Below, piece by piece: positions 14,156 to 61,217 of a stretch of DNA of 64,000 nucleotides; the stretch's first letter is position 1; each line of letters opens with the position of its first letter. Made by a program: the position numbers and the translations under genes. The notes beneath the pieces are model-generated. The model had not been told where the DNA came from, searched no databases, and saw only the letters and a program-made list of their open reading frames with translations. The stretch covers positions 110,980,001 through 111,044,000 of the forward strand of contig OZ024743.1 of NCBI GenBank assembly GCA_964016885.1. The letters are read 5' to 3'. This stretch comes from Eledone cirrhosa. Taxonomy: Eukaryota.

Positions 14156-15386
<1,231 letters not shown>

Positions 15387-55958: not shown

Positions 55959-56032
<74 letters not shown>

Positions 56033-56705
56033 CAGGTACACATACATATATGCACGTATCAGTTTAGCGGACGCTTATTATAACGCCCGCTTTGTTCGTT
56101 TGTAAACAAACTGAACAGCGTGAATTTATGCCGTACGGTGTTAAGGCAACCACGTCACCTTTTCGTTCAACACTGACACAGGAACGATGTACTAGTTTCA
56201 AGCTTGTTAGCTATCATCAGCACCGTATACCCTTCTGCCAGATGGTTGAACGTTCGAAAGTATATACTTTCCTTATGAAAATTAACGGCTGAGCAGCCTA
56301 ATTTGCATATCGAGAGAGTTACATTTAAGTAAGTGCCGTACTAAGAGTGAGAAATGAAATTTCGTTTTCATTTTATTACAACTTATCGTTTTCGGTACGC
56401 CTGGCCGTCTGAACTCACTCGATATGCAAATTAGGCTGCTCAGCCGTTAATTTTCATAAGGAAAGTATATACTTTCGAACGTTCAACCATCTGGCAGAAG
56501 GGTACACGGTGCTGATGATAGATAACAAGCTTGAAACTATTACATCGTTCCTGTGTCAGTGTTGAACGTAAAGGTGACGTGGTTGCCTTAACACCGTACG
56601 GTATAAATTCAGGCTGTTCAGTTTGTTTACAAACGAACAAAGCGGGCGTTATAATAAGCGTCCGCTAAACTGATACTTGCATATATGTATGTGTACCTGT
56701 ATGTA
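55843..56705. mobile_element. Second locus of family B (direct + inverted copy); hammerheads at 56184-56226 (-) and 56506-56548 (+, mutated)
   Basis: Highly similar to 16767-17260; inversion junction at ~56320; flanked by (TA)n. Confidence 0.88.
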
Positions 56706-56999
56706 TATATATATATATATATATATTTGTGTGTGTGAGAGAGAGAGAGAGAGTGTGTGTGTGTACATGTGTGTCTGTTTCTGTGTCTGTGTCTATGTAT
56801 GTGTGAGTATGGATTTCTTATATGTAAAGACATACGGTATATTTAATAAATAAACATTTTGAAAGCCCAGATATAAATATTAATAGGCTGACGGCCAGCG
56901 GATCTCACCACACTCAGCGAGGAAAAACTGTCCATGCACGTTTTGAGCTACTACTTCTCTTCAGCTCAGGGCTTCCTTGCTCTGTGCTGGAACTCGAAA

Positions 57000-58445: not shown

Positions 58446-58616
58446 GCGAGAGAGAGAGTGAGAAAAGTAGAGAAAGAGAGAGAAAAAGATGGAGATAGAG
58501 ATAGGTATGTACATGTATGTGAGTATTCATATTAAATTACCTATTGCCATACTGATGTTCACATTTAATATGAAAGTGCGCTGTTATTTCAAATAATTAA
58601 ATATATATATATATAT

Positions 58617-59942
58617 ATCAAAATAAGGACCCGAAGGCATGGTATAAATTTCCAATCATTTTAATCACGACACATGTTTCAATATGAGATAGATCGATCG
58701 TGTAGCCATGATCGATTATCACTGAACTCGTCAGGTGAAAATGAATTGTGTTCAATTCCTTGATATGAGGGAGAAAATTAACGGTGTTCACTCACAGAGT
58801 TTAGTCCCTCATATGAAGATCAAACAGTCAAATCACGCCGACTGCTATCGTCCTCAGTTAGGGTAACAAACTATCAAGTCTCTATCTCCCAATAGCTGTA
58901 AAAGACGCGGGATATCAATCAAATCTGTAGAATTACAGTCGGTCACAGTCAATGTGAGTGGGTACACACTCACTCACACACACACGACGCGTGGTCAATG
59001 AAAAAAAAATATATATACATATACCAACATAGTATAACTCTGTAGAACTAAATACGGTCTCAGTTAGTATGAGTACAACCACACTCACATACACCGTCAC
59101 GAAAGAAAAAATATAAATATACCAACTTAGTATTGAACGAAAGTTAGTTTACAAAACAACAAATGTTATATTGGTCAAATCACAATTTGAGGATGTAAAT
59201 CGGAAACATTTGGTCAACCGCAACCCTATACACACGCAAGTAAGTTCAGTTAAATGTTCTGCTATACTTGTATAGATTGAATTGTAACATCCGTATCTCC
59301 AAATAGTGTATGTTATGGTACATACACATCCGCATCGTCCAAAAAAGTGTGTTTAGGTATATACATATCCATGTGAAGAGCAAGTAGTCACCTCATATCG
59401 AACTCAGTATGTGCCGTTGTCGCATTGTGAATCTGACTCCCCAAATATGTGCGTGCAAGCAAGCGCTATGTAGGCCACCAAGGGGCCAACCCTACACACA
59501 GCGTCTATAGTTCTCCAGAGTTGATGCTATGTTGGTATATGTATATATATTGTTTTTCTTTGACCTCGCGTAGTGTGTGTGTGAGTGAGTGTGTACCTAC
59601 TCACATTAACTGTGACCGACTGTAATTCTACAGATTTGATTGATGTCCAGCGTCCTTTACATCTATTAGGAGATAGAGACTTGATAGTTTTATGACCCCA
59701 ACTGAGCACGATATCAGTCGCCGTGTTTTGACTGCTTGATTTTCATATGAGGGACTAAACTCTGTGAGTGAACACCGTTAATTTTCTCCCTCATATCAAG
59801 GATTTGAAAAAAATTCATTTTCACCTGTCGAGGTCAGTGATAATCGATCATGGCTACACGATCGATCTATCTCTTATTGAAATATGTCTCGTGATTAAAA
59901 TGATTGGGAATTTATACCATGCCTTTGGATCTTTATTTTGAT
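58617..59942. mobile_element. Family F: ~410-bp inverted arms (58617-59030 / 59525-59942) around a ~500-bp spacer
   Basis: Arms are diverged reverse complements; starts at (TA)n. Confidence 0.85.
58657..58743 (-). ncRNA. Type I hammerhead ribozyme with extended stem II (family F); partner 59816-59902 is mutated
   Basis: Minus strand: tcac-CTGACGA-gttcagtgata atcgatc atggctacac gatcgat ctatctcatatt-GAAA-catgtg-TC-gtga. Confidence 0.68.
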
Positions 59943-60069
59943 ACAAATACTCCGTTTTACATCATCTAGCTGTTCCCATAAATGGAATTGGAGATATACA
60001 AAAGCGTGGAGAAGTTGATATTGCTAACAAACATTTATTGGACCGTTTGACACAACCAATAATACAACT

Positions 60070-60128
<59 letters not shown>

Positions 60129-60132
<4 letters not shown>

Positions 60133-60885
60133 TGTATATATAATGTATTTTGCAATACACTTTATGCTTAATTAAAAGCATTTCGAAGACCGTCTGCTAT
60201 TGTTTTAGAGTAGTGACAAACTCACTTACTTTAATCTCAGCAAACAAGGGGAGATAAACCGACAAGGCCTTGTTTCGCATTTATTGATGCTTATCAAGGC
60301 TAACTACTCCCTCCTGTCTACTGAGATCACTGATGTTATATTCTTATAGAATTCTAGTAAATAATCAGGAACTGATTATACAGAGCGATTGCCGGTCAGG
60401 CAGAAATTAAAAATTAGAATTGGAGCTCTGAAATAGCAATATATATATGAATGTATATATATAATGTATTTTGCAATACACTTTATGCTTAATTAAAAGC
60501 ATTTTGAAGACCGTCTGCTATTGTTTTAGAGTAGTGACAAACTCACTTATTTTAATCTCAGCAAACAAGGGGAGATAAGCGGACAAGGCCTTGTTTCGCA
60601 TTTATTGATGCTTATCAAGGCTAACAACTCCCTCCTGTCTGCTGAGATCACTGATGTTATATTCTTAGACAGGTGGGAGTAGTTAGCCTTGATAAGCATC
60701 AATAAATGCGAAACAAGGCCTTGTCGGCTTATCTCCCCTTGTTTGCTGAGATTAAAGTAAGTGAGTTTGTCACTACTCTAAAACAATAGCATACTTTCTT
60801 GAAAATGCTTTTAATTAAGCATAAAGTGTATTGCAAAATACATTATATATACATTCATATATATATTGCTATTTCAGAGCTCCAA

Positions 60886-60891
<6 letters not shown>
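60129..60891. mobile_element. Family D hammerhead-bearing repeat: ~321-bp unit, partial direct copy, inverted copy, in (TA)n
   Basis: Motifs at 60249 and 60570 (321-bp spacing); inversion at ~60668. Confidence 0.88.
60675..60737 (+). ncRNA. Type I hammerhead ribozyme with U3-A8 core (family D); minus copies 60249-60311 and 60570-60632
   Basis: gggag tagtt agcc-TTGATAA-gcat caataa atgc-GAAA-caaggccttg-TC-ggct tat ctccc; predicted cleavage after C60725. Confidence 0.85.
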
Positions 60892-60966
<75 letters not shown>

Positions 60967-61217
60967 ATCTGTTATATATATATATATATGTACATTTATT
61001 TATTAATATAACAGATTAAAGTTTAAGCAAAGAATCGGTGCTTTCACCCTTAACGAGAGTTTCAGAAGATCCAGTTAAGGGTGAGAGCAGCGATTATTTG
61101 CTTAAACTTAAATCTGTTATTTTAATAAATACTTGCTCTAGGGTTCTTATATATTTGATATATATTTATCCTTATCGAGCACTCTTCCGATGTTATTCTT
61201 CACATCTATTATTATTA

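Follow-up and report, generated by a model that had tools for sequence, protein, structure and literature searches.

The locus at 60120–60892 of the analysed stretch of Eledone cirrhosa DNA (64,000 nt of contig OZ024743.1, here called the window) is best read as an insertion of a young 319-bp repeat with a U3-A8 hammerhead core. It is likely a retrozyme copied by Penelope-type enzymes, and its ribozyme is predicted to be off as a single motif and on as a tandem double hammerhead. We assign this reading as a whole a probability of roughly 0.6. The element class and the U3-A8 pair are already known; what appears to be new is the switch from C3-G8 to U3-A8 traced here and the predicted off-alone, on-in-pairs design. 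The preliminary description of this DNA does not mention that the locus is one Penelope-type insertion out of a large, mobile family.

The three U3-A8 type I hammerheads at the locus are real. Copies 1 (minus strand, 60244–60316; U3 at 60297, C17 at 60261) and 2 (minus strand, 60565–60637; U3 at 60618, C17 at 60582) form a tandem, while copy 3 (plus strand, 60670–60742; U3 at 60689, A8 at 60694, G12 at 60710, C17 at 60725) lies on an inverted arm and lacks a same-strand tandem partner. The three copies reported earlier were thus all confirmed, but only two of them are in tandem. The UUGAUAA core, the perfect 12-nt palindrome as stem III and the GUC site claimed for these copies were seen in all three, together with a 4-bp stem II with loop CAAUAA followed by GAAA. 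Every helix is intact in copy 3. The stem I pairing agcc/ggct holds for this plus-strand copy only: copy 1 has one G.U wobble in stem I, and the first stem I pair of copy 2 is a C.C mismatch. The segment gggag/ctccc, given as the outer part of stem I, is not its limit, and pairing extends far past it. Cut to cut, the monomer (60261–60581, minus strand) has 321 nt. This agrees with the unit length reported for the locus but not with that of the family, which is 319 nt in most copies (7 of 9 tandem spacings of the subfamily); the local spacing results from a 2-nt slip within a TA run.

A strict hammerhead descriptor requiring at least 4 bp in each of stems I, II and III and a paired 3-8 position matched twice within the window but never in any of 20 dinucleotide shuffles. 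The Rfam scan of the window yielded no match at the gathering score. Hammerhead_HH9 (RF02275) reached 22.6 and 19.5 bits, below its gathering cut-off of 52 bits, and the motif of this family (family D) is not filed under that entry. The core signature of type I hammerheads was found (C3/U3-UGA-N-G8/A8-A, GAAA, A15.1-U16.1, H17, with 3 and 8 paired), and the three covariation-supported helices leave stem I open, as is a feature of this type. The unit at this locus contains no ORF of 150 aa. With a GC content of 0.33–0.35 and a unit of 315–324 nt in most tandem pairs, the family lies within the limits for retrozymes (170–400 nt, GC <45%).

The insertion consists of two arms joined head-to-head at their 5' ends, and the 3' ends of both pass into (TA)n. 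Numbered from the base following C17, the long arm (60120–60667, minus strand; 548 nt or 1.7 units) extends from +234 at its 5' end to +141 at its 3' end, and the inverted short arm (60666–60892, plus strand; 227 nt) from +260 to +167. The (TA)n target runs flank the arms on the left (60073–60119) and on the right (60893–60965). A 26-nt tail (60867–60892, plus strand) was found at just one of the insertion's two ends.

We mapped 147 distinct arms in 90 fetched loci, some of which overlap. The 3' ends fell near +141 (68 arms) or near +167 (61 arms) and elsewhere in 18 arms, so that 129 of 147 belong to two fixed classes. One end of each class was paired in 38 of 52 two-armed insertions, and at least 8 nt of TA adjoined 92 of the 129 fixed-class ends. 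The 5' ends were scattered, and the longest arm had 816 nt. They did not accumulate at the cut site (2 of 147 arms start there), which fits a circular template and also an uncut precursor. Rare variants were shared by 10.9% within an arm, 6.0% between arms and 1.5% between loci. These values would fit one template per insertion, be it a circle or a tandem precursor.

The marks described for Penelope-like elements comprise tandems that are partial, an inverted copy truncated at its 5' end, a tail on one side only and targets in microsatellites (Craig et al. 2021, PMC8557442). The inverted 5'-truncated arm, the one-sided tail and the microsatellite target were all found here. Family D shares these marks, partial tandems included, with the Penelope-like insertions described in the accessible text of that paper and of Li et al. 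2026 (10.64898/2026.07.22.740005). It differs from them in lacking an RT/endonuclease ORF: neither the locus nor the arms mapped contain the RT and GIY-YIG ORF of an autonomous Penelope-like element. The tail is also shorter, 26 nt compared to 30–40 nt (PMC8557442). Among 50 and 30 fetched loci of two Penelope-like families, no terminal homology to an autonomous pLTR was found.

In one chimeric insertion (L136/L201), a 3-nt microhomology joins pieces of the family, in sense orientation, to a Penelope-like element truncated at its 5' end, and TA flanks the whole on either side. Copies of this Penelope-like element are 96–98% alike and about as old as the subfamily concerned. This one case in 150 loci suggests a helper element, and the Penelope-like family of L201 is a candidate for it. 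The stretch L201:942-2865 comprises D3 pieces and the young Penelope-like element, whose 3' region carries a minimal C3-G8 hammerhead candidate.

The window itself harbors a two-armed Penelope-like remnant (31334–36241) with a GIY-YIG-type frame at 34286–35191. A first look at the genome gave 67,328 candidates for its family, with near-intact frames of 790–812 aa (L061–L063). The 3' regions of its copies showed no clear hammerhead. As a helper it was rejected because the unit had no match in these 3' regions (50 loci), barring one nearby older unit. Pfam searches with the Penelope-like proteins returned no family, and we presume that these proteins are Penelope-like from GIY-YIG-like and cysteine motifs described in the literature. 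Further inverted-repeat insertions, at 58610–59949, 23502–24255 and 60997–61131 of the window, carry no recognised ribozyme.

Family D is a young non-coding 319-bp repeat in a genome of 3.0 Gb that is rich in AT and microsatellites. A 26-nt core stretch had 527 exact matches genome-wide and 539 when positions 3 and 8 were left free, and at least 630 intact cores were found genome-wide across three subfamilies. Divergence from the subfamily majority was 1.1% for D1, 2.8% for D2 and 3.1% for D3 among sampled copies, which are biased to the best matches. U3-A8 was present in 59 of 60 D1 cores, 32 of 36 D2 cores and 39 of 43 D3 cores, part of which had been found by the core pattern. Relatives with C3-G8 are about 75–80% identical along the unit, and a pattern for their 3' half gave 1834 matches. 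They have other stem II sequences; C3-G8 combined with family D's own stem II had 0 matches. Two loci (L179, L185) combine the D3 palindrome with the stem I spacing of these sisters and may represent an intermediate subfamily near the core switch. A lower rate of variants in the core (0.75% compared to 1.85%) was disregarded, since the core pattern itself had served to find many of the loci. Matches to miRNAs were dismissed because they stem from the inverted arms and the TA runs.

For a tree we used 150 of 181 copies; 31 were left out as truncated or with flanks too changed, and copies with other core bases were never collected. In this unrooted tree, for which the bootstrap had not settled, 104 U-A copies were separated by a 100/100 branch from 44 C-G and 2 C-A copies, and no U-G copy was present. 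Since C3-G8 is the general state and diversity is deeper on the C3-G8 side, we infer that U3-A8 is derived. Among U3-A8 copies (32 hand-picked rows of 146 cores), 4 of 14 stem pairs had changed on both sides. When the C3-G8 sisters were added (19 rows), this was the case for 7 of 15 pairs including the 3-8 pair, which was U-A in 11 and C-G in 6 rows. In these hand-picked rows of related sequences, 97–98% of the helix cells were paired compared to 20–48% in slid controls. The covariation of stems I–III argues that the ribozyme fold was kept by selection. Together with the tree of copies it supports the earlier assignment as a type I hammerhead of full architecture whose U3-A8 pair is compensatory.

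U3-A8 had also been called a known but uncommon natural variant, and this is borne out by natural covariation and by activity in vitro (Perreault et al. 2011, PMC3088659). About 1,300 minimal U3-A8 motifs are described from Schistosoma (PMC4209133). Family D has the compensatory core pair in common with these motifs of the Cercyon PLE and with the variants in PMC3088659. The Schistosoma motifs are minimal and mostly single, while family D shows the full architecture in a tandem unit, and its C3-G8 sister subfamilies show the switch in one genome. The accessible text of PMC3884650, PMC7151607, PMC7373991, PMC6962438 and PMC13282606 holds nothing on a rate cost of U3-A8. In literature searches that covered few subscription journals, full-text searches returned no paper on U3-A8 in a full-architecture tandem retrozyme, and no paper on cephalopod retrozymes was found.

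The extended stem I had been suggested to contact loop II as in fast natural hammerheads, which implies a fast lone motif. Folding did not support the latter. For 60670–60742, the hammerhead fold was predicted to lie 3.1–7.2 kcal above the ensemble in 12 of 12 parameter/temperature settings from four parameter sets. Lone U3-A8 copies gave a median P(hammerhead) of 4e-6 to 5e-3, depending on the variant. In the predicted blocking helix (60686–60719, plus strand), the 5' strand of stem I and U3-U4-G5 (60686–60691) pair with the 5' half of the palindrome (60714–60719). The helix is predicted to persist in every subfamily, with 6–7 bp in the U3-A8 group and 4–5 bp in the C3-G8 sisters, and position 3 and its partner in this helix are C-G, U.G or U-A across the subfamilies. 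One mismatch occurs in the subfamily of the locus (7 of 29 rows). Every change in this helix has a further explanation in stem I or stem III. The natural palindromes ranked among the most strongly blocking ones at equal GC content, with all but 5/320, 8/320, 20/160 and 13/320 of the alternatives blocking no better, in a test on related subfamilies that was chosen after the fold had been seen. With a tighter palindrome null, two of the four subfamilies were unremarkable (11/64, 41/128). U3 was rejected as the cause of the block, since an in silico swap to C3-G8 weakened it in some subfamilies and strengthened it in others.

Folded as circles, the units showed the blocking helix less clearly than the short fragments (P 0.02–0.41), and the predicted P of the hammerhead fold was at most 0.008. 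The monomer is strongly self-paired (z -7.3). The folding models are without tertiary contacts, Mg2+ and proteins, and such factors could open a block of 3–5 kcal. The other hammerheads of the window were unsuitable as folding controls because their stem III is minimal. An unpaired U 7 bases past the cut and a loop II ending in A would fit the published stem I-loop II contact, though two of the three U3-A8 subfamilies have an extra U there. U1.7 and the terminal A of loop II are present in the subfamily of the locus and in the C3-G8 sisters.

The palindrome of stem III (60713–60724 in copy 3) forms no stable hairpin alone, and a 12-bp duplex of -19.5 kcal is predicted between copies. Three different perfect palindromes occur among the U3-A8 subfamilies, and both of the changes between them kept the palindrome perfect. 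The central palindrome pair, which would close a 2-nt loop in the monomer, is G-C in 14, A-U in 11, G.U in 3 and unpaired in 1 case; from its position, this covarying pair should be able to form only between two copies. The palindrome self-duplexes have predicted energies of -19.5 to -24.3 kcal compared to -6.9 to -13.6 kcal in the C3-G8 sisters. The commonest C3-G8 sister (L143, L146 and L152 among the sisters) has an imperfect palindrome, so that the dimer helix would have tandem G.A pairs at its centre. Given the predicted block of the lone motif and the covariation between copies, a failure of 60670–60742 to cleave alone would not refute activity.

In 20 of 24 tandem pairs, the predicted P of the double hammerhead exceeded that of the single fold, and the direction was the same under four parameter sets. 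The double hammerhead was the minimum-energy fold of one natural tandem pair (L003). Only 11 of the 24 tandem pairs are intact, and at this locus one stem I pair of copy 2 is broken. The 11 intact pairs gave a median P of 0.26 for the double hammerhead, with P >0.05 in 7 and P <0.05 in 4 of them. A long local stem I would form first during transcription and could hold the RNA in the off state. Dimeric hammerheads of newt and axolotl (PMC7229834; dimer model in PMC4209133 and PMC3088659) are likewise weak alone and double-active via a palindromic stem III; for family D this behavior is a prediction. While the newt and axolotl monomers are weak because their stem III has 1–2 bp (PMC7229834), stem III of family D could form 4 bp, and a competing helix into which core bases are drawn is predicted to keep its monomer inactive.

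From these predictions we propose the following life cycle. In a lone unit or circle, the stem I 5' strand and U3-U4-G5 would pair with the 5' half of stem III and block the core. In a tandem transcript, two palindromes would form the 12-bp duplex, each core would be paired to its partner's cut site, and the two sites would both assemble. Double cleavage would release a 319-nt monomer, which a host ligase may close into a circle (by analogy to PMC7229834), and the blocked circle would persist. A Penelope-type RT/endonuclease may then copy the circle (again following PMC7229834) from priming points at +141 and +167, with copying primed at both sides of one cut in (TA)n. This circle, but also an uncut precursor, would fit the arms in which the cut site is read through and rare variants are shared above background. 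The locus analysed here is probably not a source copy, since damage affects one of the two tandem sites and read-through RNA from it would form a long hairpin. Because of the C.C mismatch, cleavage after 60582 is expected to be impaired, and copy 3 has no partner. We suggest more tentatively, and with some doubt, that the family carries a built-in copy-number sensor. The core-recruiting helix would keep monomers and circles uncut, the palindrome would override it in tandems, and stepwise changes after the core swap would have re-tuned both helices.

The hammerhead of the same retrozyme might instead cleave efficiently as a monomer, with tertiary contacts outweighing the predicted blocking helix, as the preliminary description had assumed. 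We consider this unlikely: besides the predicted block of 3.1–7.2 kcal, the blocking strand is transcribed ahead of the competing strand, the central palindrome pair covaries, and two subfamilies have the extra U at the contact site. Its support comes from the 4-bp stem III, the unpaired U1.7 and the loop II ending in A, and from the efficient monomer cleavage of most invertebrate retrozyme hammerheads (PMC7229834). Moreover, 1 of 9 tested Xenopus dimers cleaved (10.64898/2026.07.22.740005), so that predictions often fail either way.

Two other explanations appear improbable. If the units were pseudo-LTR fragments of an autonomous Penelope-like element and not an independent small RNA, the end structure, which matches that of Penelope-like elements (PMC8557442), would be explained; U3-A8 was in fact first described in Penelope-like terminal repeats (PMC4209133), and retrozymes are reported to derive from pLTRs (10.64898/2026.07.22.740005). 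However, the arms run from unit into unit up to 816 nt without a common upstream coding sequence, a nearby Penelope protein match was found in 15 of 150 family loci but at varied positions, and no match was seen between the unit and the 3' ends of the fetched Penelope-like copies. The probability is similarly low for a dead relic ribozyme, in which AT-ward mutation produced U3-A8 and uncut transcripts spread the repeat. C>T and G>A are indeed the commonest changes (225 of 690 rare variants), and the 5' ends of the arms disregard the cut site. Against a relic speak the joint change of both partners with 0 U-G intermediates in 150 copies, the later helix changes within the U3-A8 branch, which all preserve pairing, and the conserved core, into which 0 of the 29 listed subfamily differences fall.

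On the favored reading, family D works like a metazoan non-LTR retrozyme that a Penelope-like element mobilises, and it shows those features of such a retrozyme that could be tested. As in the retrozymes described by Cervera and de la Pena 2020 (PMC7229834), the units are non-coding tandems of ~300 bp with low GC content, each with one type I hammerhead and a strongly self-paired monomer. Family D differs from the elements in the accessible text of that paper by its U3-A8 core and by an invertebrate-type long stem III that is nevertheless predicted to be dimer-dependent. It further differs by a predicted block of the core through self-pairing, described in that paper as absent from most metazoan retrozyme circles, and by its dispersed insertions, which are two-armed and do not exceed 2.5 units in the loci seen. 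PMC7229834 leaves open by what means the circles of animal retrozymes evade their own hammerhead, since most are predicted to fold it freely. Family D offers a sequence-encoded answer to this question; if the prediction is true, it would be a natural RNA switch by which an animal retrozyme circle avoids linearising itself. In addition, one genome provides a natural before-and-after series of a core base-pair swap, so that the cost of U3-A8 is measurable in matched backgrounds, and a pair-gated ribozyme could help to make stable RNA circles.

U3-A8 had been noted in a second, dissimilar family of the window, and this was confirmed: cores at 14508 and 15101 (minus strand) lie 593 bp apart, and in 20 fetched loci, part of which overlap, UUGAUAA was present in 42 of 48 matches. 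The window self-comparison showed no match between this family and family D, and we infer that it is the family C of the preliminary description. Its insertion at 14193–15275 consists of a 593-bp tandem and an inverted arm, and its U3-A8 hammerhead combines a stem II region of 59 nt with a palindrome of 10 nt. The genome holds at least 40 close copies, and a core-blocking helix of the family D type was not seen in this family. A 553-bp tandem family at 20717–22002 contains a U3-A8 hammerhead candidate with cores at 21499 and 20942 (minus strand) and long stems II and III. The 465-bp two-armed array at 17408–19330 has a minimal C3-G8 hammerhead with 4 cores, one of them with a damaged GAAA. A dispersed minimal C3-G8 family with an extra U flanking stem II on both sides occurs at 16965–17330, 19450–19856, 20179–20562 and 56006–56726, and also in L061 and L079. 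Two more unrelated minimal U3-A8 hammerhead candidates were found in L056 (minus strand, 3465) and L070 (minus strand, 5283), which suggests that the U3-A8 swap is recurrent in this genome.
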